Positions 10,972-40,508 of a stretch of 64,000 nt of DNA are shown here, piece by piece. The notes beneath the pieces were generated by a model. The model was not told the DNA's origin. It did not search any database and was given only the letters and a program-made list of their open reading frames with translations. The stretch lies in assembly GCF_048403405.1 (NCBI RefSeq), contig NZ_CP183131.1. One strand, written 5' to 3'. Source of the DNA: Escherichia coli. Lineage in GTDB: Bacteria > Pseudomonadota > Gammaproteobacteria > Enterobacterales > Enterobacteriaceae. Every line of letters starts with the position of its first letter. The stretch's first letter is position 1. A program made the position numbers and the translations under genes.

Positions 10972-11469
10972 TTAGCCGTTTCGACGCGCATAAACGGAGT
11001 GGGTGTACGGAATTACAGCTTGAATGGTTTCGGTTGAGACAAGCTCGAATTCTGTTTCGTTGAGCATTGGGAAGAAGGCGTCACCCTCGAAGGTTTGATG
11101 TACCTCAGATAGAAACACGCCGTGGGCGTGAGGTAGTGCCAGAGTGTATATCTCAGCTCCGCCCGCGACGTAGAGTTCATTGCCGAGTTCGGATGCCAAA
11201 GCGATAGCGTGCGACAGCGTTGAAACAACTACGCAGCCAGTGGCGCGGTAGTTAGCTTGGCGTGAGATTACCAATGTGTGACGGTTCGGTAGAGGCTTGC
11301 CGATAGACTCAAAGGTCTTTCGCCCCATGACAACGACTTTTCCCTCAGTGAGTCTGCGAAAAATCTTCTGCTCACCCGGAATTTTCCAGGGGATATTAGG
11401 ACCATTGCCAATAACCCGATTGGCTCCCATCGCAGCAACGAGATAAATGCGTACTGATTCCGAGTTCAT
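10972..11469 (-). CDS. dfrA12: Trimethoprim-resistant dihydrofolate reductase DfrA12
   Basis: 165 aa, MNSESVRIYLVAAMGANRVIGNGPNIPWKIPGEQKIFRRLTEGKVVVMGRKTFESIG…. Confidence 0.87.
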   Translation of the reverse strand: MNSESVRIYLVAAMGANRVIGNGPNIPWKIPGEQKIFRRLTEGKVVVMGRKTFESIGKPLPNRHTLVISRQANYRATGCVVVSTLSHAIALASELGNELYVAGGAEIYTLALPHAHGVFLSEVHQTFEGDAFFPMLNETEFELVSTETIQAVIPYTHSVYARRNG

Positions 11470-11540
11470 ATGGCTAACTTTGTTTTAGGGCGACTGCCCT
11501 GCTGCGTAACATCGTTGCTGCTCCATAACATCAAACATCG
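11470..11540 (-). other. attI1 integration site
   Basis: Canonical attI1 sequence (reverse complement …gccctaaaacaaagttagcc) abutting the first cassette. Confidence 0.7.
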
Positions 11541-11613
11541 ACCCACGGCGTAACGCGCTTGCTGCTTGGATGCCCGAGGCATAGACTGTACAAAAAAACA
11601 GTCATAACAAGCC

Positions 11614-12627
11614 ATGAAAACCGCCACTGCGCCGTTACCACCGCTGCGTTCGGTCAAGGTTCTGGACCAGTTGCGTGAGCGCATACGCTACTTGCATTAC
11701 AGCTTACCAACCGAACAGGCTTATGTCCACTGGGTTCGTGCCTTCATCCGTTTCCACGGTGTGCGTCACCCGGCAACCTTGGGCAGCAGCGAAGTCGAGG
11801 CATTTCTGTCCTGGCTGGCGAACGAGCGCAAGGTTTCGGTCTCCACGCATCGTCAGGCATTGGCGGCCTTGCTGTTCTTCTACGGCAAGGTGCTGTGCAC
11901 GGATCTGCCCTGGCTTCAGGAGATCGGAAGACCTCGGCCGTCGCGGCGCTTGCCGGTGGTGCTGACCCCGGATGAAGTGGTTCGCATCCTCGGTTTTCTG
12001 GAAGGCGAGCATCGTTTGTTCGCCCAGCTTCTGTATGGAACGGGCATGCGGATCAGTGAGGGTTTGCAACTGCGGGTCAAGGATCTGGATTTCGATCACG
12101 GCACGATCATCGTGCGGGAGGGCAAGGGCTCCAAGGATCGGGCCTTGATGTTACCCGAGAGCTTGGCACCCAGCCTGCGCGAGCAGCTGTCGCGTGCACG
12201 GGCATGGTGGCTGAAGGACCAGGCCGAGGGCCGCAGCGGCGTTGCGCTTCCCGACGCCCTTGAGCGGAAGTATCCGCGCGCCGGGCATTCCTGGCCGTGG
12301 TTCTGGGTTTTTGCGCAGCACACGCATTCGACCGATCCACGGAGCGGTGTCGTGCGTCGCCATCACATGTATGACCAGACCTTTCAGCGCGCCTTCAAAC
12401 GTGCCGTAGAACAAGCAGGCATCACGAAGCCCGCCACACCGCACACCCTCCGCCACTCGTTCGCGACGGCCTTGCTCCGCAGCGGTTACGACATTCGAAC
12501 CGTGCAGGATCTGCTCGGCCATTCCGACGTCTCTACGACGATGATTTACACGCATGTGCTGAAAGTTGGCGGTGCCGGAGTGCGCTCACCGCTTGATGCG
12601 CTGCCGCCCCTCACTAGTGAGAGGTAG
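11614..12627 (+). CDS. intI1: Class 1 integron integrase IntI1
   Basis: 337 aa, [53 protein letters not shown]…; divergent from the cassettes. Confidence 0.95.
11701..11729 (-). promoter_or_regulatory. Cassette promoter Pc, weak variant with extended -10 (PcW TGN-10)
   Basis: Minus strand reads TGGACA-N17-TAAGCT, with TGG immediately upstream of the -10 (gttggtaagct). Confidence 0.75.
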
Positions 12628-12849: not shown

Positions 12850-13669
12850 GGCACTGTTGCAAAGTTAGCGATGAGGCAGCCTTTTGTCTTATTCAAAGGC
12901 CTTACATTTCAAAAACTCTGCTTACCAGGCGCATTTCGCCCAGGGGATCACCATAATAAAATGCTGAGGCCTGGCCTTTGCGTAGTGCACGCATCACCTC
13001 AATACCTTTGATGGTGGCGTAAGCCGTCTTCATGGATTTAAATCCCAGCGTGGCGCCGATTATCCGTTTCAGTTTGCCATGATCGCATTCAATCACGTTG
13101 TTCCGGTACTTAATCTGTCGGTGTTCAACGTCAGACGGGCACCGGCCTTCGCGTTTGAGCAGAGCAAGCGCGCGACCATAGGCGGGCGCTTTATCCGTGT
13201 TGATGAATCGCGGGATCTGCCACTTCTTCACGTTGTTGAGGATTTTACCCAGAAACCGGTATGCAGCTTTGCTGTTACGACGGGAGGAGAGATAAAAATC
13301 GACAGTGCGGCCCCGGCTGTCGACGGCCCGGTACAGATACGCCCAGCGGCCATTGACCTTCACGTAGGTTTCATCCATGTGCCACGGGCAAAGATCGGAA
13401 GGGTTACGCCAGTACCAGCGCAGCCGTTTTTCCATTTCAGGCGCATAACGCTGAACCCAGCGGTAAATCGTGGAGTGATCGACATTCACTCCGCGTTCAG
13501 CCAGCATCTCCTGCAGCTCACGGTAACTGATGCCGTATTTGCAGTACCAGCGTACGGCCCACAGAATGATGTCACGCTGAAAATGCCGGCCTTTGAATGG
13601 GTTCATGTGCAGCTCCATCAGCAAAAGGGGATGATAAGTTTATCACCACCGACTATTTGCAACAGTGCC
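12850..13669 (-). mobile_element. IS26: IS26, complete 820 bp (tnp26 12902-13606, minus strand)
   Basis: Terminal IRs at 12850-12863 and 13656-13669; identical Tnp26 ORF; inverted relative to the copy at the window start. Confidence 0.97.
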
Positions 13670-13962
13670 GTATCACTCATGGCCTGTTTCGGCTTCACAA
13701 AAAAATGGTTCATTTTGTGCGCAAACGTCCAGCTTTCAGAATCGCCAAAAGCATGAGTGATATAGGTTTCGTCAGGCGCGACAACAATGTGGGTAGCCAC
13801 ACCGGCGATAGCGTCAATTTTGACCACATTAACAGGGTTATAAACAACGCTTTTAATGCGATAGTCATAAGGATAATTGCGGCCAACCTCAAGCGCCATA
13901 ACGTTAGTGGCCGCGCCTCCCAGGACTGACAAAACGACTGCTGAAAGAAGTAGTTTTTTCAT
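13670..13962 (-). pseudogene. traO: traO (VirB9-like), 5' portion including signal peptide; interrupted by IS26
   Basis: MKKLLLSAVVLSVLGGAATNVMA signal peptide then VirB9 N-domain; ORF reads into the IS26 IR; 8-bp gtatcact at the junction. Confidence 0.8.
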
Positions 13963-13972
13963 GGGGCAGCCC

Positions 13973-14359
13973 TCAGTTAACTTCAGGGTTGACGCGATAA
14001 CTCGTCACGCGGAAACCCAGCGGGTTGACATAACGCTGCTCAGCATTCATCGCCAGCGATTTATATTCATACCCCATAATGGCAATCCAGCGCTGCGGCT
14101 GATCATCAACGGGATTGCTGCGCACGCGGCGAACCGTAGTAAAGCGTATCGTTGCTACGCCGTGCGGTTTATCGAGGATCACAGAGTTAATCTTCACGCG
14201 GGTCGTTTCACTGTCGCCCAGAACCTTATCAAGACCGTTGCGGCCCTTGAACTTGCTCTGGTAAGACTCTGCCACGTTCGGCGTGGACATTAAGCCAACG
14301 GCCGTTATGCTCTCTAGTTGAACGACGGATCTCTTCCGAAACTCCACGCAAAAAACCAA
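13973..14359 (-). pseudogene. traE: traE (VirB8-like), 3' portion only; 5'-truncated at a recombination junction
   Basis: C-terminal VirB8-type domain (…NPLGFRVTSYRVNPEVN); in-frame stop directly upstream of the first codon; no N-terminal TM region. Confidence 0.6.
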
Positions 14360-14732
14360 TTACATTGGCCCGGAATGTACGTCTCTTCTCCTCTATCTCA
14401 AGCAAGTAACTCAAGTAGAAGTAAAACGGTATCGAGACGAACAATGACAAAGGGAACCAGCCTTTTTCGCTGGCAGAAACAAAGAGTCTCGGCTCAAACA
14501 TTTTCATGGCGAGGGTCGCCATTAGCACAGAGACAACTACTGGAGTCACCGCCATCAAAAATCGGGAATGAAGGTACGCCATCCAGACCCCAGCGACTAA
14601 AGCTGTTAGCGAGAGGAACATAGCAACAACCAACGGGCTCGCATCAATGGCGATTAGCCCTATCTGGACGATAATGACGAAGCAAAGAAGCAATATTCTG
14701 TATAAAAATGACCGCATTCCAACCCACCTCAA
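14360..14732 (-). pseudogene. Multi-TM membrane protein, apparently 3'-truncated and frame-fused to traE-derived sequence
   Basis: 167-aa ORF with 3-4 hydrophobic helices; its last ~40 codons overlap the VirB8 fragment in another frame. Confidence 0.4.
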
Positions 14733-15313
14733 TCCAAGATAATCTTGCGCTTATCTTTCTGAATTTCGATAGGCTGCTCCGGTTCACTCAGAACACCCTC
14801 TGACGCTTTCAGATCTTGAATACTTGGAAAGCCCTTCCCTGCTCCTGCTTTTCTTGGTCTCTGCTCTGTTACCTCAATCGCTATTTCATCCCCCTCCCGG
14901 AACTGCGGGTAACAACCAGCGCGGTTGGCATAGCGATTCAACGACATTTTGAGCAGCCGGTATTTCTTTGGGCAGGTTATTTGTACTGACGCATCAGAGC
15001 TGCAAGCTGCGTCAAGCCGCCGGAAAAATTCCTCCGGTATCCCCTTTACAAGGAGATCGCTCAACTCATCCATAGGCCTTGAGCCGGTTGGCATCGGATA
15101 TGGCAACCTCCGGTATTCTCTGTAGATGTACCGCTTGATGACGATATGAAAGACGAATGCGGCAAAGCCCCACAAAGGGCCATTAAGGAGCCCCGCAACG
15201 ATAAGTAGCACCGACGGGAAGGGAACCCCTACGAAACTCGGCAGGACTTTAATCTTTACCATCGGCGTTGACCGACGCACACTCTCACTCATTTGCTGAC
15301 CCTTTACGTGCAA
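14729..15313 (-). CDS. Membrane-anchored hypothetical protein with C-terminal …PIEIQKDKRKIILD tail
   Basis: One TM segment; the C-terminal 14 aa nearly match the tail of the 16069-17253 product. Confidence 0.5.
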   Translation of the reverse strand: MHVKGQQMSESVRRSTPMVKIKVLPSFVGVPFPSVLLIVAGLLNGPLWGFAAFVFHIVIKRYIYREYRRLPYPMPTGSRPMDELSDLLVKGIPEEFFRRLDAACSSDASVQITCPKKYRLLKMSLNRYANRAGCYPQFREGDEIAIEVTEQRPRKAGAGKGFPSIQDLKASEGVLSEPEQPIEIQKDKRKIILD

Positions 15314-15713
15314 CCTTGTACTGCACTTTCAGATCGTAACCATACACTTCCTGATGAAGGACTTTCACGGGGACACCTTCAACGGTCCCCAGGTACACGC
15401 TCAGCTCAACTTCCGGAACATCGTCCCTGAGACCCAGTACATTGCGCCACCCAGTCGATGTCTTCTGGCAGTGAGCGCCCACCCTGTCATGCCGGTAGTA
15501 AATGTCTTTGTTATCTCCTTGGCAGATGAAGAATCCACTAACCTGCCCCGTCCTTAACACCCACTTGCGGTTGTGGAAGGTAGCTTCTTTCTCCACCTCA
15601 GTGGACTTGTCTATAGCCACCGGGCTTACCACCAGCTCTTGTGCGGCCAAATCAGACACAAGGCCTATTACCAACGCGGATAACAGAGCGGCCATAGCCG
15701 CCCGTGTCATCAT
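15285..15713 (-). CDS. Secreted hypothetical protein, paralogous to the periplasmic domain of the 16069-17253 product
   Basis: Signal peptide; shared pattern KW..L.G…G(F/Y)F(I/V)C.G. Confidence 0.5.
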   Translation of the reverse strand: MMTRAAMAALLSALVIGLVSDLAAQELVVSPVAIDKSTEVEKEATFHNRKWVLRTGQVSGFFICQGDNKDIYYRHDRVGAHCQKTSTGWRNVLGLRDDVPEVELSVYLGTVEGVPVKVLHQEVYGYDLKVQYKVARKGSANE

Positions 15714-16069
15714 ACTGCCGCCTCGTGAGTGGCATCGGCAAAGAATTTGCCTTGTTTGTAGATCTCGTCCTTCTCGAACGAGATAGCATCCGCACGACTG
15801 CTGAATGGGCCATAGCTTTTACCGTCGATCAGCACCTTCCACTGGCAACGCCAAACACGAGTCCATGCCGCAATCTTTGACTCGTCTGAACAAAGTCCGC
15901 GAATAACATAGAACGCAATCATTAGAATGCCGCTCGTCGGCACGATGCGCGAAACCCTTGTTTTACTGTATTCCTGCACTTCAAGGCCTTTGAAGGAAAC
16001 CTCATCGGCAAACCCGCAGACCTCACCATTTTTGATTACGATGCGCTTTTTGCTCATAACCGACCCCAC
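15710..16069 (-). CDS. Hypothetical protein
   Basis: 119-aa ORF, start/stop coupled with neighbours in the same operon. Confidence 0.4.
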   Translation of the reverse strand: MGSVMSKKRIVIKNGEVCGFADEVSFKGLEVQEYSKTRVSRIVPTSGILMIAFYVIRGLCSDESKIAAWTRVWRCQWKVLIDGKSYGPFSSRADAISFEKDEIYKQGKFFADATHEAAV

Positions 16070-17253
16070 TAATCCAAAATAATTTTGCGCTTGCCTGGCT
16101 GTACTTCGATTGGCTCTTCCTTTTGCACCTTTGGTGCCGGAGCTGATGAGCTGACAACCACCGGTTCTCTTTCTGTGTTTTGTTGCTGGCGCTCACGGAG
16201 TTCATCCACTGAGGGAGGCTCATTGCTTGGTCGTTCAGCCCTTTCTGCACGTCGGGCTTCTCTTAACAACTCATCAATTTCGGAGTCGCTCCGGTTATTC
16301 ATAAAAGCTCTATAGGCAAAGAAAATCAGCACCGGTACTATTGCCACCAAGAAGAAAGGAAATGAGCTTCCGCTATCTTCCACTGGCTTGGTACTGGCCG
16401 CGCCTGTATCGAATACGGTACGAATAACCGTTGGCGCGGTCATGATCATAATTGCAGGCATTATCCCCATCACAATTCCTGATGGGCTCTGCCTCATAAT
16501 TCCACTAGCAACCCCAAACACCAGCATCAATCCCGCTATGACTTTGACGAAAGAGCTATCCATTAGACCGATCATGGAGTCACTTACCTCCTCGAACGGA
16601 CTTTGAAACGCACTGGTATTGCGGTCAGTGTCTTGTGCAGCATTAATCTGCTTGGGAGGTTCACTCTTTGGTGCAGTCACTATGGATGACGCTGATTGTT
16701 GGCTGGCAGCCTTCTGCGTTTCACCATCCTGCTTGACCACCCCCAGATCCTGAGTTTTGACGTGCGTTTGTGCTGGTGGTGCTAACTGGTATTTGACTGC
16801 CAGGTTGTTGCCGTGGACTTCAATGGTTTGCAGGGAGATGGGTTTACCTTCCAACTTGGTCAGAGCTTCTTGGAGCGGCAGCTCCTGAGCATCAGTCATA
16901 CCGCCCATAAAGCCATTAAACCCGTCATCATGAATACGGCATCGCAGCCTTCCCGAATAGCTACGGTATTCACCTGGGCAAACAAAATAGCCGCCCTGAG
17001 GGCCATCCAGTTTGCGCCATTTATTGCTTTTGAAGGCCTCCACTTTGGTCACAACTGGCTGACCGTCATGGTAATCAATGACCGTTTTGCTCTCCGGGCC
17101 AGTGTCCTCTATCTTCTTGCTGCCTGAGTCATCTGAGAGCATTTGCCCCACCATAACGCCAGTCACAAAGTCACTGGCAAAGGCCGCAGGAGCTGCGACC
17201 ATGAGACCAACCAGCAAAAGAAGGGGGACGCGCCCTGTCCTTCTCATCACCAT
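16069..17253 (-). CDS. Envelope protein: signal peptide, periplasmic domain, TM helices, charged cytoplasmic tail ending …PIEVQPGKRKIILD
   Basis: 394 aa; domain order inferred from hydrophobicity; start overlaps the upstream DUF2997-like gene stop. Confidence 0.55.
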   Translation of the reverse strand: MVMRRTGRVPLLLLVGLMVAAPAAFASDFVTGVMVGQMLSDDSGSKKIEDTGPESKTVIDYHDGQPVVTKVEAFKSNKWRKLDGPQGGYFVCPGEYRSYSGRLRCRIHDDGFNGFMGGMTDAQELPLQEALTKLEGKPISLQTIEVHGNNLAVKYQLAPPAQTHVKTQDLGVVKQDGETQKAASQQSASSIVTAPKSEPPKQINAAQDTDRNTSAFQSPFEEVSDSMIGLMDSSFVKVIAGLMLVFGVASGIMRQSPSGIVMGIMPAIMIMTAPTVIRTVFDTGAASTKPVEDSGSSFPFFLVAIVPVLIFFAYRAFMNNRSDSEIDELLREARRAERAERPSNEPPSVDELRERQQQNTEREPVVVSSSAPAPKVQKEEPIEVQPGKRKIILD

Positions 17254-17441
17254 TCGTTCTGTTCCGTTTCGTGCTGGGTTTGACCAGCATTGAAGTGGTA
17301 CTCGGGTTTCAGCTCTTTTTCTTCGACTTCGAGCTCTTCCGGGCGAATACGCTGTTCCAGCGCTTCACAGGTCTTACCCTGAAACCCCGTGAAATCGGCA
17401 GCAATCTTGCCGCCCTTGATCTTGATGTTTACCTTTTTCAC
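17247..17441 (-). CDS. Small protein resembling the DUF2997 family
   Basis: 64 aa, MKKVNIKIKGGKIAADFTGFQGKTCEALEQ…; family assignment from memory. Confidence 0.45.
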   Translation of the reverse strand: MKKVNIKIKGGKIAADFTGFQGKTCEALEQRIRPEELEVEEKELKPEYHFNAGQTQHETEQNEW

Positions 17442-17489
17442 TTTGTCACCTCGTCGTTAAGTTCAACTAATCTGATTGCCTTGGCGCTA

Positions 17490-17882
17490 TTACCAAACAG
17501 CTTCCTCAGCTTCCAGTTCCAAAGTGCCATCGTGATGCTGCTTCACCGTCACGCTGAAACCTTCCTCTTTCAACTGCTGCTCGTAGTGGAAGGCAATGTA
17601 GCGATCCTGCACCTTGCTGCTTGCCTGCTGCGTCCAGCGGCCATAAGAGCCGTAGTTTTCCTGGTACTGCTCCCAAACACCGTTTTTTTCCTTGTAGCCA
17701 ATCCGGTGCTCCTTGTTGTTCTGGTCGATCAGAACAATCGGGTATTTCTCGAAGGTGTAGCCAGCGCCCACGCGGTACAGCTTTTCGTTTTCAACAACAA
17801 CGCCAACTCCCTCCAGAGCCTTCAACAGCAGCTCTTTGTCTTTGTAGGCGACCTGCACCTTGCCTTTTACGATATGGCTCAT
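17490..17882 (-). CDS. Protein resembling the DUF1257 family
   Basis: 130 aa, N-terminus MSHIVKGKVQVAYKDKELLLKALEGVG; family assignment from memory. Confidence 0.45.
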   Translation of the reverse strand: MSHIVKGKVQVAYKDKELLLKALEGVGVVVENEKLYRVGAGYTFEKYPIVLIDQNNKEHRIGYKEKNGVWEQYQENYGSYGRWTQQASSKVQDRYIAFHYEQQLKEEGFSVTVKQHHDGTLELEAEEAVW

Positions 17883-17886
17883 CTCA

Positions 17887-18225
17887 TCACTCCTGAGTTG
17901 TTTCGGGTGTCATGCCGTGTTCCGACATAACAAAGTTAAGCGCGGCAATGGAATAGTCTTGCCCGAGAGAAACTTCGATCTTTCCTTCTTTCTCCAGCTT
18001 TCGGCCAAGCTCGGTAAGGTTTTCCATCATGGGGATGAGCTTGAACAACGAACTCATGTAGGTGATCGATGTGGAAACGTCTCGGGCGAACTGGTCCAGC
18101 ACCTTACTCTTGTCGATAACCAGAGGCTCTGGTCTATCCACTCCATCTTTTTCTGACTGGAGTTTGCTGCACAGCTTGAGCAGCTCAATCCCCTTCTCAA
18201 TGTCTTGTTTGTACATAACGGTCAA
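17887..18225 (-). CDS. Hypothetical protein
   Basis: 112-aa ORF between the AAA+ gene and the DUF1257-like gene. Confidence 0.4.
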   Translation of the reverse strand: MTVMYKQDIEKGIELLKLCSKLQSEKDGVDRPEPLVIDKSKVLDQFARDVSTSITYMSSLFKLIPMMENLTELGRKLEKEGKIEVSLGQDYSIAALNFVMSEHGMTPETTQE

Positions 18226-18371
18226 TTCTCCTCTCTGCCGTTTTGATGCTCTCTCCTGGCCGCACCAGCTCGCTCCCTAGCCCACTCAGCTAGAGCATTG
18301 ATTAAGTCGCTGACTTCTGAGTGGAATATCAATGACACAGCAAGAGCAGTCCAAAAAATCCACTCCATCGC

Positions 18372-19835
18372 TTAGTCCTCGATGGCAAGTTTGCGTCCAG
18401 AGCCATTCTGCTCTTGAACATCGAAGTTATTGGCCGGATAGAAGCCTTGATCCCGCAAACTGCGAATCTGGTTGATGTCTTCCCGGCGAGTTTCACTGGT
18501 CGGGGTAATGCGAGTGACCGCATCCACCAGCGCTTCATTGTTGAGCTCTTTGTCCTGAGCGTTCGCCAGATACATCGCGTCAATGACGGCCTGTTCAATC
18601 TCTGCCCCGGTGTATCCCTCGGTGGTACGAAGTAGCGTAGGCATATCGAACGCGGCGATGTTGGCCTTCTGCTTGGCGAGGTGGATCTCAAAAATCTTCT
18701 GGCGCTCAGCCACACTTGGCAGATCAATGAAGAATGCTCGGTCCCAGCGGCCAGCTCGCATCAATTCAGGAGGCAGCGACTGAACCCGGTTGGCCGTCGC
18801 CACAATGAAGATCTTCTTCTTGCGCTCTTGAAGCCAGTAGAGGAAAGAGCCCAGCAGGCGCTTGGATACTTCGTGTTCGCCATCGGCATTACCAAAAAAC
18901 TTCTCCATCTCGTCAATCAACACAACAACGGGTGCGATCTGCTCAATGGTCTGCAATGCACGATTGAACTGGCGCTCGGTTTCACCGAGATACTTGCTAT
19001 AGAAACGGCCCATATCCAGGCGAACCAAGGTAGTGCCAAGTACACCGGCAGCGGCTTTTGCCGTCAGCGATTTACCACCACCAGGTACACCGGCCAGAAG
19101 GACACCTTTTACCGGAAGGTCTTTGTCCCAACCGGCTTTACGTATCTGGAGGAACTCCTTGAGGTTTTCGAGACCACCGACATTCCCAATATCAATGGCC
19201 TCAAGCACATCGAGGCCGACATCACGCAAGATGTGAGCTTTTTCTTTTCGGATCTCGCCCAGGTATTCTTCACCCTTGAATTTCAAGTAAGCGGAGTAGG
19301 TGAAGACGTTCTTCATCTGGGTGTGTGACAAGCCCAAGGCGTGGTTTGCGATGACAGCACGTTCGTTGCTCTCGAAGACTCCACCATCTTTCACGTTATC
19401 TTCACAGGTCTGGAGCAGTTTCAGGATTTCCTGATTGCTCATAGCCGGGAGATCGATGTGATAAACGAACTCTTCATTGAAGACGTCTTTGCCAGCGATG
19501 ATGTAGTTGATCCCCTCATTCTCCAGATAGGTCAGTGATGACTTGAGGGCTGGGAGTGTTTCCGGGTTTGCACGTTGGCGGTCGAAAAAGAAAGTGTCGA
19601 ACACGACAACTCCGTTTTTGGAGGACTTCTTGGACTCGTCCACCATTGCCTTCATCGTGCCTGGATCAGGCAGCTTCTTGAATGGCATTACAATAAAGTG
19701 CTTGCCGACTTTCTTTGCAATGTCAGAGAAAACGCTCTCTGCGCGGCCCAGCTCAAAAGTGCTAACGTTGATGACTGGAAAGGACAACTTGATTGGAATC
19801 TCAAGTTTGTCCATTTGCTGTGTAATATCGCTCAT
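18372..19835 (-). CDS. AAA+ ATPase (Ycf46/CbbX-like, C-terminal AAA module)
   Basis: 487 aa; Walker A GVPGGGKS, Walker B VVLIDEMEKF, arginine-finger region; N-terminal ~230 aa of unknown function. Confidence 0.8.
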   Translation of the reverse strand: MSDITQQMDKLEIPIKLSFPVINVSTFELGRAESVFSDIAKKVGKHFIVMPFKKLPDPGTMKAMVDESKKSSKNGVVVFDTFFFDRQRANPETLPALKSSLTYLENEGINYIIAGKDVFNEEFVYHIDLPAMSNQEILKLLQTCEDNVKDGGVFESNERAVIANHALGLSHTQMKNVFTYSAYLKFKGEEYLGEIRKEKAHILRDVGLDVLEAIDIGNVGGLENLKEFLQIRKAGWDKDLPVKGVLLAGVPGGGKSLTAKAAAGVLGTTLVRLDMGRFYSKYLGETERQFNRALQTIEQIAPVVVLIDEMEKFFGNADGEHEVSKRLLGSFLYWLQERKKKIFIVATANRVQSLPPELMRAGRWDRAFFIDLPSVAERQKIFEIHLAKQKANIAAFDMPTLLRTTEGYTGAEIEQAVIDAMYLANAQDKELNNEALVDAVTRITPTSETRREDINQIRSLRDQGFYPANNFDVQEQNGSGRKLAIED

Positions 19836-19877
19836 CGCTTATCCTTTAAATAAATTTCGACTTGTTGATCACCTCAC

Positions 19878-19906
19878 ATCATAAGTTCATTTTATGATGC
19901 TGTAAA
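19878..19906 (-). promoter_or_regulatory. Putative sigma70 promoter TTTACA-N17-TATGAT upstream of the AAA+ ATPase operon
   Basis: Minus strand: -35 at 19901-19906, -10 at 19878-19883, 43 bp before the start codon. Confidence 0.45.
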
Positions 19907-19908
19907 TA

Positions 19909-20841
19909 TCACCTTCCAACTCTGTAGCTGTTCACGGCGGACTCAACGCGCTTGACTGACACGTCTATACCATTTGTCACCAGCAACTCATGCACTTGGC
20001 AACAGGCCTGTTGTTTCAGGCCAAAGAACTCTTCGTTAACACGGGCATACTCTGCTGCCGAATTGGAGGCGGCTCGTCTTAGATCTGGCATCAGAGATTC
20101 AACGCGAGACTCTACTTTGTCCAGAGAGGAACTGGCAGACGACAAGCTGAACAGCGAGAAGACGCTCCCAAAGTCGAAACCATCATTCAAACCGGCAAAG
20201 TCCATACCCAGATCGATAAACTCAGTTGCCATTGAGTGGTGCAGTGAGCCCACAATGTCACGATGATCCCCCAGCGCATTTGCGAAGGCTTTCACAGCTC
20301 TCTTCGCATCGTCTATTTCACTGCTGGCCGAGGAGTTTGACATCGACGACATGACGGAAATGCCCTTGTTGTCAGTCACAAGGTCGAGAACCTCCATTGT
20401 TTGTGCTGATGAAACACTGGAAGAGGCCTCACTGATTTCACGTAAGGCTTTTTGCCCCATGTCCACCAGTCGCTTGTTGCTCTCGTGGAGTCGAGATGCG
20501 GCGTCAAGCCTATCTTGAGCTTGGGTGATTCGTTCCAGAATCTGGCTACCGTCAATCGCTTGCTTCACGGCCCGAGAAACCAATCCCTCTTTGAGCTGGT
20601 CTCTCCCACGGCGCAAATACCGCAAATCGCTGTTATGGCCTTTTAGTGCTGAACGTATAACGGCGATGTCTCGACGAAACTGCCAGAACGTTATAATTTT
20701 TTGCCAGATCCCCAACTGAGCACGCTGTTGGCAAAGAGCTTCGTACTCTGCACCTTTCTCTTCAACCTGGCTGAGAGCTGCGGTAATCCTGTCTTGATAT
20801 TGCCGGTCGTCAGCCAAGTAACTTTGAATTGCTTGTTCCAT
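19909..20841 (-). CDS. Hypothetical protein (Ser-rich middle region)
   Basis: ORF; ATG at 20841 preferred over the TTG at 20853. Confidence 0.45.
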   Translation of the reverse strand: MEQAIQSYLADDRQYQDRITAALSQVEEKGAEYEALCQQRAQLGIWQKIITFWQFRRDIAVIRSALKGHNSDLRYLRRGRDQLKEGLVSRAVKQAIDGSQILERITQAQDRLDAASRLHESNKRLVDMGQKALREISEASSSVSSAQTMEVLDLVTDNKGISVMSSMSNSSASSEIDDAKRAVKAFANALGDHRDIVGSLHHSMATEFIDLGMDFAGLNDGFDFGSVFSLFSLSSASSSLDKVESRVESLMPDLRRAASNSAAEYARVNEEFFGLKQQACCQVHELLVTNGIDVSVKRVESAVNSYRVGR

Positions 20842-20854
20842 CCCGTACCCCAAA

Positions 20855-20874
20855 AACTTTCACATGTGAAAGTT
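20855..20874. promoter_or_regulatory. Palindromic operator-like site AACTTTCACATGTGAAAGTT (copy 1 of 8)
   Basis: Perfect 20-bp palindrome directly upstream of the 19909-20841 gene. Confidence 0.5.
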
Positions 20875-21035
20875 CATTCTTTCTTTGTTCTGCCAGTACA
20901 AAGTATTTTGCCTTAGAACGACCTCACACCCCGCCCCTGCTCACGCCCATTTTGGGCAATTACAGATTCAGCATTTACAGGCTTATAATGTGATGCCGTA
21001 ATAGACAAATAAAAAACGGCATAGCCGTTTTTACC

Positions 21036-33466: not shown

Positions 33467-33557
33467 TATTCACCTCCTATACCAACCAGCGTACAGGACT
33501 TTTCAAAAATGCAACCCCGCCTAGCTGCCCAATTCGGGCAACCCTGATTCAATCCAG

Positions 33558-40260: not shown

Positions 40261-40508
40261 ACCACCGTCTCTCGATGCTGGAGGGCAAGCGGTTCTCGAT
40301 GCGAGGGTAAGGTCTGTTTATCTGAGCCTATCCGTGCAGCGTTCCCATAGGTTCCCTTACTCAACGATCAAAAAGCCACCGAAAAGCAACCTATATGCCC
40401 CTTTTGGGCAATTACACAGGCCATCTGTCCCCGCTTTTAGCCTTATTCTCTATCCAACACGCGGCAAGCAATCGAAAAGCAATCTAAAAGCAATCTTTGG
40501 AGGATTTC

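Follow-up and report, generated by a model that had tools for sequence, protein, structure and literature searches.

Short C-terminal motifs that recruit AAA+ ATPases, or are read by them, are of a known kind, with established examples including the MIM-MIT pairs, the HbYX motif, the p97 tail with its PUB/PUL cofactors, and the ssrA tag. In the p97/Cdc48 group, terminal tails dock cofactors, and membrane proteins are extracted. IncC plasmids are major vehicles of resistance genes, including those for carbapenemases, and most of their backbone genes have no known function. Here, an operon of an IncC (IncA/C2) plasmid backbone is described within a window of 64,000 nucleotides from Escherichia coli (contig NZ_CP183131.1, assembly GCF_048403405.1). 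Two membrane proteins of this operon, of 394 and 194 amino acids (aa), end in nearly the same cytoplasmic peptide, and a weaker copy of it closes the p97/Cdc48-like AAA+ ATPase encoded upstream. The peptide is most likely a short linear motif, and it is reasonably probable that it tethers the membrane proteins to the ATPase complex. The features on which the argument depends are the following, in window coordinates:

16069..17253, minus strand: 394-aa membrane protein with a signal peptide, a Cys-containing periplasmic domain, a TraA-pilin-like hairpin, a third transmembrane (TM) segment and a cytoplasmic tail.
16072..16119, minus strand: tail of the 394-aa protein, EEPIEVQPGKRKIILD-COOH, with the core KRKIILD (BLASTP and homolog alignments).
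14729..15313, minus strand: 194-aa (annotated as 187-aa) membrane protein with a hydrophobic hairpin at residues 23-59, a distinct cytoplasmic domain and the tail.
14732..14779, minus strand: tail of the 194-aa protein, EQPIEIQKDKRKIILD-COOH (BLASTP, comparison of the tail DNA and homolog alignment).
18372..19835, minus strand: 487-aa AAA+ ATPase, p97/Cdc48/VAT-like, with a degenerate D1-like domain and a predicted active D2 (sequence, AlphaFold and Foldseek).
18375..18398, minus strand: GRKLAIED, the C-terminal end of the ATPase; a variable acidic linker precedes this weaker copy of the tail (ortholog ends and pattern counts in open reading frames (ORFs)).

The described systems each offer a partial parallel. 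With p97, Cdc48 and VAT, the ATPase shares a D1-D2-like fold, classic-clade motifs, and a flexible C-terminal extension that carries a conserved short motif. However, its D1 domain is degenerate, it has no p97-type N domain, and its G-R-K-Φ-x-Φ-D/E ending is unrelated to the DDLYG end of p97. The p97 C-terminus works with PUB/PUL cofactors, whereas no PUB/PUL or proteasome-like partner is encoded in the module; uniquely here, the presumed client membrane proteins end in a motif of the ATPase's own kind. By analogy with p97 in endoplasmic reticulum-associated degradation, the module ATPase may act on membrane proteins. The HbYX motif (VAT and PAN with the 20S proteasome) was not found, as the ATPases end in GRKLAIED, GRQLNVD or VRKIIQ, and no 20S-like gene occurs in any locus. 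The likeness to Vps4/CdvC and the MIM peptides of ESCRT-III and CdvB is one of logic only, several membrane-associated paralogs recruiting a single AAA+ ATPase through a C-terminal peptide: the match of the ATPase to the NCBIfam CdvC model is weaker (2.7e-19), no MIT domain was detected, and the peptide is basic, hydrophobic and strand-like rather than a MIM helix and sits on integral membrane proteins. The ssrA tag (…LAA; ClpX, ClpA, FtsH) is likewise a short, conserved peptide at the C-terminus that follows a flexible linker and goes with a substrate-threading AAA+ enzyme, but the module tag is encoded on specific proteins, ends in Asp instead of a non-polar residue, is sometimes trailed by further residues, is common to the ATPase, and has no linked protease.

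The Shared C-Terminal Tail

BLASTP between the 394-aa and 194-aa proteins aligns their extreme C-termini only, with 12/16 residues identical, including all of the last seven (KRKIILD). A first-pass annotation of the window, made from the letters alone, had proposed near-identical tails on two envelope proteins, and this reading is borne out; the ORFs of 394, 142 and 194 aa indeed lie on the minus strand where it placed them, in an operon with an AAA+ ATPase gene (18372-19835) that is upstream on the same strand, with no intervening terminator-like site above background. When all six frames of the 64-kb window were scanned for [KR][KR][KR][IVLM]3[DE] followed by a stop, two gene ends were found, those of the 394-aa and 194-aa proteins. 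A six-frame scan of the complete 158-kb IncC plasmid pYR1 showed the core motif ending ORFs solely in three adjacent membrane-protein genes of the operon, no Tra protein or other ORF of this plasmid bearing it; a loose version of the motif recovered these three tail genes plus the ATPase and nothing else.

The DNA encoding the two tails is approximately 77% identical; codons of the conserved residues differ synonymously (CCA/CCT, AAA/AAG, ATT/ATC), the stop codons are not the same, and no longer direct repeat joins the two genes. The synonymous changes and the different stop codons argue for purifying selection on the peptide rather than on the DNA. Among homologs of the 194-aa protein (63-98% identity), KRK(I/V)ILD is invariant and the preceding 20-30 residues vary with insertions and deletions, the PIEIQ stretch being too poorly kept to count as conserved. 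Homologs of the 394-aa protein down to 40% identity, including Aeromonas plasmid proteins (40-45%), keep the end K-R-K-(I/V)-(I/V)-(L/I)-D invariant or nearly so. A profile search of 1.84 billion representative proteins returned 139 relatives, and those that align at the profile's C-terminus share the ending, remote examples being …KNQRKIVLD, …KNKRKVILD, …KRRRKILLD, …AVRKIVLD, …KGHRKIVLD, …GRRLYLD, …GRRRIVLD and …GKRKLILD; R-[KR]-Φ-x-L-D recurs in still more divergent relatives. An origin in recent duplication or gene conversion is contradicted by the tail DNA comparison and the homolog alignments. The first-pass annotation had itself named a DNA-only duplication, or absence of the tail from homologs, as findings that would speak against the shared tail; since the tail is present in every homolog examined, neither was encountered.

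For a consensus, 51 distinct C-terminal 12-mers were anchored at the C-terminus after preselection by the core pattern [KR][KR]Φx[ILVMK][DE], which makes the conservation of patterned positions partly circular. Among the residues allowed, R occupies position -6 in 51/51 (K allowed), K position -5 in 41/51, L position -2 in 44/51 and D position -1 in 50/51 (E allowed). At positions outside the pattern's constraint, G is present at -8 in 22/51 and P at -9 in 17/51. The tail is placed in the cytoplasm by hydropathy and charge, and the consensus (P)-G-[KR]-R-[KR]-Φ-x-L-D-COOH is most likely a cytoplasmic C-terminal short linear motif.

Distribution of the Module across Plasmids, Metagenomes and Phages

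The tail was followed through approximately 30 loci, comprising Aeromonas plasmids (L002, L003), other assemblies (L004, L005, L007-L009), Pseudomonas- and Oleiphilus-type loci reached via the conserved 130-aa protein (L011-L013, L015), and 21 metagenome loci (L016-L036). The operon itself was found in 588 of the 72,556 plasmid records searched. A core recurs in these loci, consisting of a ~490-aa AAA+ ATPase, a 130-aa protein that begins with MSHIV…, a ~63-aa DUF2997 protein, at least one tail-bearing membrane protein, and a ~110-aa soluble protein, and the genes stand in this order in every locus that extends far enough. The small core proteins of the window are:

17490..17882, minus strand: 130-aa DUF1257/Ycf35-like protein (MSHIV…, …EEAVW), the module's most conserved gene.
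17247..17441, minus strand: 64-aa DUF2997 protein (Pfam PF11211 and RefSeq name).
15710..16069, minus strand: 119-aa (annotated as 115-aa) soluble protein of the ~110-aa family KKRIVIKNG…WTRxWxCxW…FEK.

Each module encodes one to five tail-bearing membrane proteins with unrelated membrane parts, the anchors being TraA-pilin-like hairpins, single-pass segments, other hairpins or multi-pass segments, in some cases with a common disulfide-type periplasmic domain. In each of these proteins, the tag closes a variable cytoplasmic linker of low complexity. The Aeromonas plasmids have two such proteins, the second (176 aa) sharing approximately 76 C-terminal residues with the first (E 7e-11), and L007 also has two. 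Three consecutive tail proteins are encoded in L009, one of them with a type-IV-pilin-like GFTLLE N-terminus. This last gene (L009:770-1284) combines its GFTLLEIAV… N-terminus (weak Pfam N_methyl match) with a second TM segment, and its C-terminus reads …RRKVIEK in frame and …KGYRKIVLD after a +1 shift, which may reflect a frameshift or a sequencing error. The largest set was seen in L028 (6635-9750), where five consecutive membrane proteins of 71-282 aa each carry PG-x-R-[KR]-[IV]-x-[LK]-[DE], ending in …PGTRKVMLD, …PGHRKVILE, …PGHRKITLD, …PGLRRIIKD and …PGLRKIIKD. Pseudomonas-type modules encode two tail proteins with the motif GRR/KL(F/Y)(L/I)D, the larger having a signal peptide, a periplasmic domain, one TM segment and the tail, with no pilin-like hairpin. 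Several Pseudomonas-type proteins, and protein P0059, continue for 6-10 residues past the motif (…GRRLFLDDVTDK, …GYRKIILDTGDSGGRNE); the motif thus does not require a free carboxylate directly at its end. Across these loci, the tail is a module-wide signature on membrane anchors of unrelated sequence.

Parts of the module also occur in phages. Rhizobium phage L338C and Pseudomonas phage SM1 (L038:4771-6008 and L037:5429-6018) encode ATPase homologs of ~30% identity and, a few genes downstream, MSH…-type/DUF1257-like and DUF2997-like genes; L338C also encodes a 122-aa protein with a similar N-terminal strand. Within the stretch examined, no tail-bearing membrane protein was found in either phage. 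A scan of viral contigs with the 130-aa family gave no relatives, and a scan of genome contigs gave two loci only. A match in a Pseudomonas aeruginosa megaplasmid (H65) was rejected on account of its unrelated context.

The AAA+ ATPase and Its Own Tail

The motifs GVPGGGKS (Walker A), VVLIDEME (Walker B) and ATANR…GRWDR (second region of homology) place the ATPase in the classic AAA clade. NCBIfam and PDB sequence matches, to PAN, CDC48, FtsH and VAT, range from E 1e-29 to 6e-45, a PHROG model matches as well, Pfam AAA is found on orthologs, and, of the solved structures, VAT and p97/Cdc48 match best in sequence. An AlphaFold monomer model from 25 orthologs reached a predicted local distance difference test (pLDDT) score of 86, and Foldseek aligned it over nearly its full length, in approximately 520-550 columns, to p97/Cdc48 D1D2 (TMq 0.6-0.7), which reveals a tandem architecture. 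The N-terminal half is D1-like and has no Walker A, and is hence a pseudo-ATPase domain. Sequence and model together point to an active D2 domain in a classic-clade enzyme resembling the unfoldases or segregases of the p97/Cdc48 kind.

Toward its C-terminus, the ATPase passes from the lid domain through a conserved GFYPAN and a variable acidic linker to GRKLAIED. Orthologs end in GRKLAIAE, GRKLAV, GRKINV or GRKVSIG, that of L028 in VRKIIQ, and the Pseudomonas-type enzymes in GRQLNVD, (V/G)RQLTVD or GRALELG. The pattern R[KRQA][ILV]x[ILV] lies within the last 10 residues of 28/30 ATPase ORFs versus 12 of ~1400 other ORFs of at least 80 aa from the same loci (~1%). Phage and satellite homologs (~30% identity) end in …KTRKVLV and …SNRILGGK. 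Judging from these endings, a basic and hydrophobic motif at the C-terminus seems to be ancestral to the ATPase family, and the membrane proteins present a stronger version of it. The type of ATPase tail follows the lineage of the module, being RKΦxΦ in the IncC and Aeromonas types and RQLxVD or RALELG in the Pseudomonas types, and this lineage-correlated variation of ATPase and membrane tails is suggestive.

Membrane Proteins of the Operon

Four further features of the window bear on the origin of the tail-bearing proteins:

16411..16605, minus strand: TraA-like two-helix hairpin, residues 217-281 of the 394-aa protein (NCBIfam and TraA alignment).
15285..15713, minus strand: 142-aa secreted paralog of the 394-aa periplasmic domain (BLASTP; N-terminal signal-like segment).
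14306..14732, minus strand: remnant of a third tail gene (first ~143 codons), its 3' tail-coding end replaced by foreign DNA; the 167-aa ORF extends to 14229.
13618..14303, minus strand: foreign DNA outside the module, holding a VirB8' fragment and the 5' part of a VirB9 gene that IS26 cuts.

The 394-aa protein has a signal-like segment at residues 6-27, hydrophobic segments at ~232-254, 256-277 and 294-319, and then a 75-residue hydrophilic tail that is basic at its start; this hydropathy agrees with the layout of signal peptide, periplasmic domain, TM helices and cytoplasmic tail read in the first pass. Its Cys-containing periplasmic domain reads …YF(I/V)CPGEYR…RCR…GFNGF…. Besides the terminal motif, two further blocks of its cytoplasmic tail are conserved, PS(V/I)DELRxRQ and EPVVVSS. 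Pfam gave no match to the protein, and PDB sequence searches with profiles of the 394-aa and 130-aa families returned nothing useful. On the other hand, the NCBIfam model NF041281 (TraA_gammapb) matches residues 217-281 with E 4.5e-12 and 45.9 bits, short of the curated cut-off of 50 bits; the IncC plasmid's own TraA aligns with residues 218-280 (29% identity, E 7e-9); and a search with the 394-aa family profile brings up numerous 95-135-aa proteins whose alignment is confined to the hairpin segment, 8/8 of those sampled being bona fide TraA with 76-120 bits on NF041281. By these three lines of sequence evidence, the first two hydrophobic helices of the 394-aa protein are a paralog of the conjugative pilin hairpin.

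The likeness to TraA, the pilin of the IncC and SXT-type F-like T4SS (type IV secretion system), lies in this homologous two-helix hairpin (residues 217-281). Whereas TraA has ~100-130 aa and no cytoplasmic domain, the 394-aa protein adds a ~190-residue periplasmic region, a third TM segment and the 75-residue cytoplasmic tail. A true prepilin consists of a leader and two TM helices with both mature termini periplasmic, whereas the 394-aa tail is basic and acidic. The genuine IncC traA gene sits in traL-E-K-B-V-A (L040 13892-14284), and the 394-aa gene lies ~37 kb away in the ATPase operon. Score, small-prepilin architecture and operon location all place the 394-aa protein outside the TraA family, and many module relatives have the tail yet lack any pilin-like hairpin.

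BLASTP matches the 142-aa protein to residues 68-158 of the 394-aa protein at E 4e-12 (96 aa, 30% identical), which makes it a true paralog of the periplasmic domain, in line with the resemblance noted in the first reading. The accompanying idea, that the 142-aa and 194-aa proteins are a split paralog of the 394-aa protein, holds at domain level for the former and is not supported for the latter: the 194-aa protein shows no BLASTP-detectable similarity to the 394-aa membrane half and is without the PSVDELRERQ and EPVVVSSS blocks. Its single hydrophobic stretch, of 37 residues with both flanks basic, is compatible with a hairpin; searches of Pfam, NCBIfam and PHROG gave no match to the protein. 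The absent similarity, the missing blocks and the basic flanks argue that it is not a simple fission product of the 394-aa protein. Its possible role as a VirB3/TraL subunit was rejected, there being no family-model match and no VirB4/TraC linkage.

The real paralog of the 394-aa C-terminal half is, from its sequence blocks, the product of a third tail gene, which is intact directly after the 194-aa gene in pYR1, L016, L017 and L018. This product has 194 aa, 3-4 TM segments, and the blocks SIDELQ, EPEVISSTS and KRDKRKIILD, and ends in …SIDELQRGEAKEPEVISSTSDQKEQGTPKRDKRKIILD. In the window, the 167-aa ORF (14229-14732) is 97% identical over 145 aa to the intact L016 protein ending …KRDKRKIILD, and DNA homology to the uninterrupted backbone breaks off abruptly at ~14306. 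From there on, the DNA holds a C-terminal fragment of VirB8 and then a VirB9 gene, a segment cut by IS26 (tnp 12902-13624). In window-identical plasmids, whose gene annotation was taken from RefSeq (e.g., pT212), the block comprises VirB8-like, VirB9, VirB10, VirB11-like ATPase and PLD-family genes. Neither pYR1 and L016-L018 nor any non-IncC module has this block, and its absence there, together with the truncated third tail gene, identifies it as a foreign insertion unrelated to the tail; an IncN/pKM101-like tra-nuc block is a conceivable, purely conjectural source.

Some variants of the 194-aa protein (P0004, P0007, P0009 and L035:2297-2872) carry the last ~35 residues of the third protein (…SSTSDQKEQGTPKRDKRKIILD) and are apparent fusions of genes 2 and 3 through recombination between their tail-coding ends.

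Small Conserved Proteins of the Module

We know of no function in any system for the Ycf35 (DUF1257)/DUF2997 pair. The 130-aa protein is 45-87% identical across all modules, with the MSHIV… start in 22/22 members. Pfam DUF1257 (PF06868) matches are sub-threshold, 8/22 members lying at E<=0.1 (best 0.021) and none at <=0.001, with no match for the window protein; a 60%-identical UniRef homolog is named DUF1257. An MSH start is reported to be typical of Ycf35 (PMC13060386), and a DUF1257-DUF2997 gene pair is described as 'cluster g' in Synechocystis (PMC4284462). In every locus, the DUF2997 gene lies immediately downstream of the 130-aa gene. The MSH start, the DUF2997 adjacency and the sub-threshold Pfam matches suggest a DUF1257/Ycf35-like protein, an assignment that is inconclusive. 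The DUF2997 protein itself has a weak match to Pfam PF11211 (E 6.5e-4, 20.0 bits, residues 10-49 versus positions 8-47 of 47). The same adjacent small-gene pair is found in cyanobacteria and plastids, whereas here it is located on plasmids and coupled to an AAA+ ATPase and tail-bearing membrane proteins.

The ~110-aa gene always adjoins the tail genes, as seen in 27/28 loci extending past the first tail gene and, for the remaining one (L013), by alignment. The protein folds confidently in an AlphaFold fusion model (pLDDT 80-89). Pfam gave no match to the 119-aa and 130-aa proteins of the window, and literature searches (DUF1257/DUF2997, Ycf35/Ycf46, IncC with VirB, and RefSeq accessions) found no functional study of these genes.

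Two additional terminal features were observed in the small proteins. In most modules, the 130-aa and DUF2997 proteins end in acidic residues and Trp (…EAEEAVW, …ETEQNEW), which may be a second C-terminal motif. Moreover, the ~110-aa protein (MSKKRIVIKNGEV…, 16045-16069, minus strand) and the DUF2997 protein (KKVNIKIKGGKI…, 17415-17441, minus strand) have a common N-terminal KK(R)IxIKxG strand resembling the KRKIILD of the tail, which hints at strand mimicry or β-augmentation.

Proposed Mechanism and Alternative Explanations

A terminal peptide on a freely varying linker, carried by one to five unrelated membrane proteins, linked solely to the ATPase and small-protein genes, and echoed by the ATPase, argues for a short linear docking motif that a shared receptor within the module would recognize. 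Such a tail would single out plasmid inner-membrane proteins to be partners or clients of a cytoplasmic machine encoded alongside them, composed of the p97/Cdc48-like tandem AAA+ ATPase and the DUF1257/Ycf35-like, DUF2997 and ~110-aa proteins. The tails of the ATPase and of the membrane proteins would dock at one common receptor site, which the ATPase ring or one of the small conserved proteins would provide. In this way, the ATPase would be kept at the membrane beside the tail proteins, and ATP hydrolysis would then remodel, extract or assemble them. We lean toward this tethering of the membrane proteins to the ATPase complex, directly or via the 130-aa, DUF2997 or ~110-aa protein, such that the ATPase acts on them at the membrane. 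The first-pass annotation had ventured, as speculation, that the peptide is a docking or recognition tag; its strict linkage to an AAA+ operon is what a tag predicts, and direct binding to the ATPase is a further step that we infer.

Several observations weigh against tethering. In an AlphaFold fusion of the ~110-aa, 130-aa and DUF2997 proteins with the tail (18 paired orthologue rows), no docking was seen: the tail remained at pLDDT <50 and the ~110-aa and 130-aa proteins folded (pLDDT 80-93), a result of little power, as DUF2997 itself was unfolded. A Foldseek search with the fusion model yielded nothing informative. In the AlphaFold monomer model, the tail of the ATPase is disordered, and the lineage-correlated variation of the tails comes from two or three independent lineages and could be shared drift. 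Finally, the module appears, from gene numbering, to be missing from pVCR94, a highly transmissible IncC plasmid.

The main rival explanation treats the tail as a degron-like tag for unfolding or extraction, the ATPase pore engaging the free C-terminus and pulling the protein from the bilayer for turnover or hand-over. It would suit an ATPase of the substrate-threading classic clade (PAN, FtsH, Cdc48, VAT) and tags located at free termini after flexible linkers, and the reading of C-terminal tags by AAA+ unfoldases is established, for example, for ssrA. However, a related tail is also borne by the ATPase, in better agreement with a docking code than with self-degradation; the module contains no protease gene; and several Pseudomonas-type proteins, as well as P0059, have extra residues beyond the motif. 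We therefore regard a degron as unlikely.

Somewhat less likely again is a partner outside the module, such as the conjugative T4SS or its coupling protein TraD, a host factor or acidic membrane lipids, with only an indirect linkage to the ATPase. An AcaCD-like box precedes the operon, as for tra operons, the 394-aa protein holds a paralog of the plasmid's own TraA pilin, and basic C-terminal signals are generally known for T4SS substrates. Nevertheless, the motif is found in no Tra protein or other ORF of the complete IncC plasmid, and it accompanies the ATPase, 130-aa, DUF2997 and ~110-aa genes on the very different Aeromonas, Pseudomonas, Oleiphilus and metagenome backbones; these two facts, the absence elsewhere in IncC and the linkage across unrelated backbones, make an outside partner less likely. 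In addition, the soluble ATPase shares the motif, and integral membrane proteins are implausible as T4SS substrates.

The remaining two explanations are scarcely credible. That the similarity is a by-product of recent duplication, gene conversion or a DNA-level constraint such as translational coupling, the peptide being functionless, could draw on the IncC-specific PIE(I/V)Q stretch before the core, on similar Shine-Dalgarno-like GGTGGG/GTGGGG sequences directly past both stop codons, and on the variants that show recombination between these genes, but it is opposed by the synonymous differences and different stop codons and by a peptide kept with other codons, neighbors and gene orders in homologs of 25-45% identity, beside freely varying linkers. 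Just as improbable is a second T4SS in which the proteins are VirB2- and VirB3-like subunits working with the downstream VirB8-11 and docked by the tail to its ATPase. This idea arose from the TraA match and pilin-like hairpin, the VirB3-like look of the 194-aa N-terminus, and the VirB8, VirB9, VirB10, VirB11-like ATPase and PLD-family genes immediately downstream in window-identical plasmids, and the comparative data contradict it: the VirB segment is the foreign insertion that truncates the third tail gene at ~14306 and is missing from pYR1, L016-L018 and all non-IncC modules, the operon has no VirB4, and the 194-aa protein has no VirB3/TraL match.

Genomic Context, Regulation and Dispensability

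The window belongs to the IncC plasmid backbone, its positions 14000-20900 being 100% identical to many IncC plasmids from Klebsiella, Escherichia, Proteus and others. The genes of interest form a single co-oriented block on the minus strand, in the order 314-aa ORF, 487-aa AAA+ ATPase, 112-aa, 130-aa, 64-aa DUF2997, 394-aa, 119-aa, 142-aa, 194-aa and, last, 167-aa ORF. The features not yet listed are:

19909..20853, minus strand: 314-aa ORF, first gene of the operon, IncC-specific and outside the conserved core.
17887..18225, minus strand: 112-aa ORF, IncC-specific.
20944..20958, minus strand: AcaCD-box-like sequence TGCCCAAAATGGGCG, ~90 nucleotides upstream of the 314-aa gene, a predicted activator site.

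Family searches gave no match for the 314-aa and 112-aa ORFs. The 314-aa ORF is missing from the Aeromonas, Pseudomonas and metagenome modules, and the 112-aa ORF from the other modules. When the module proteins were compared with the PADLOC defense models, the ATPase showed generic AAA similarity (IetA, TRIP13; E 6e-21 and weaker) and the nine others had no match, so the module as a set did not correspond to any of these known anti-phage defense systems. To the left of ~13.6 kb lies a resistance region with IS26, intI1 and a dfrA cassette. The class 1 integron integrase gene intI1 (11614-12627, plus strand) and the dfrA-type dihydrofolate reductase cassette (10972-11469, minus strand), both identified from their translations, adjoin each other next to IS26, and the interval 10972-12627 is an ordinary resistance-island setting.

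With respect to regulation, an AcaCD consensus was derived here from published AcaCD sites, and TGCCCAAAATGGGCG has one mismatch to it. A similar box is present at the same place in all IncC-type loci, and the pattern also retrieves the pYR1 counterpart of the vcrx036 site validated by chromatin immunoprecipitation-exonuclease (ChIP-exo). A terminator-like hairpin (21012-21032) stands just upstream of the box. The operon is thus predicted to belong, and probably belongs, to the AcaCD conjugation regulon of IncC plasmids. Within the window, AcaCD-box-like sequences with at most one mismatch occur at 20944-20958, 33526-33540 and 40396-40410, all on the minus strand, which is the gene strand.

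Identity of the operon with the AcaCD-regulated vcrx035/036 of pVCR94 (Carraro 2014) was considered and rejected, as the gene sizes do not agree and pYR1 shows vcrx036-044 beyond parAB. In the published pVCR94 numbering, HU is 025, the toxin-antitoxin pair 027/028 and sul2 029, followed by parAB-region genes, with 036 measuring 378 bp. Compared with pYR1, this numbering indicates that pVCR94 probably lacks the whole segment holding the module. If so, the module is dispensable for efficient laboratory conjugation or maintenance.

Significance

As far as the literature searched shows, neither this motif nor its sharing between an ATPase and several membrane proteins has been described, nor have the pilin-derived anchor and the module as a whole, and a motif common to an ATPase and its presumed clients is unusual among AAA+ systems. 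In a broader and rather doubtful proposal, the module could be a membrane-tethered Cdc48-like machine of conjugative plasmids and phage-like elements, assembled through a 'tail code', with the ATPase and up to five pilin-like or bitopic membrane proteins addressing one receptor by their common C-terminal peptide; the ATPase would then power the insertion, extraction or turnover of pilin-like proteins in the inner membrane under the conjugation master activator. If true, it would represent a new accessory envelope-remodeling device that modulates conjugation, exclusion or phage/pilus interactions. The tail also provides an experimental handle, as a peptide of 7-9 residues, in a form suited as bait (…EVQPGKRKIILD), should pull down its receptor. 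It offers a way to define the client set of an uncharacterized bacterial p97-like ATPase, and it may open a first way into the function of the DUF1257/Ycf35 and DUF2997 pair, whose conservation reaches from cyanobacteria and plastids to phages.

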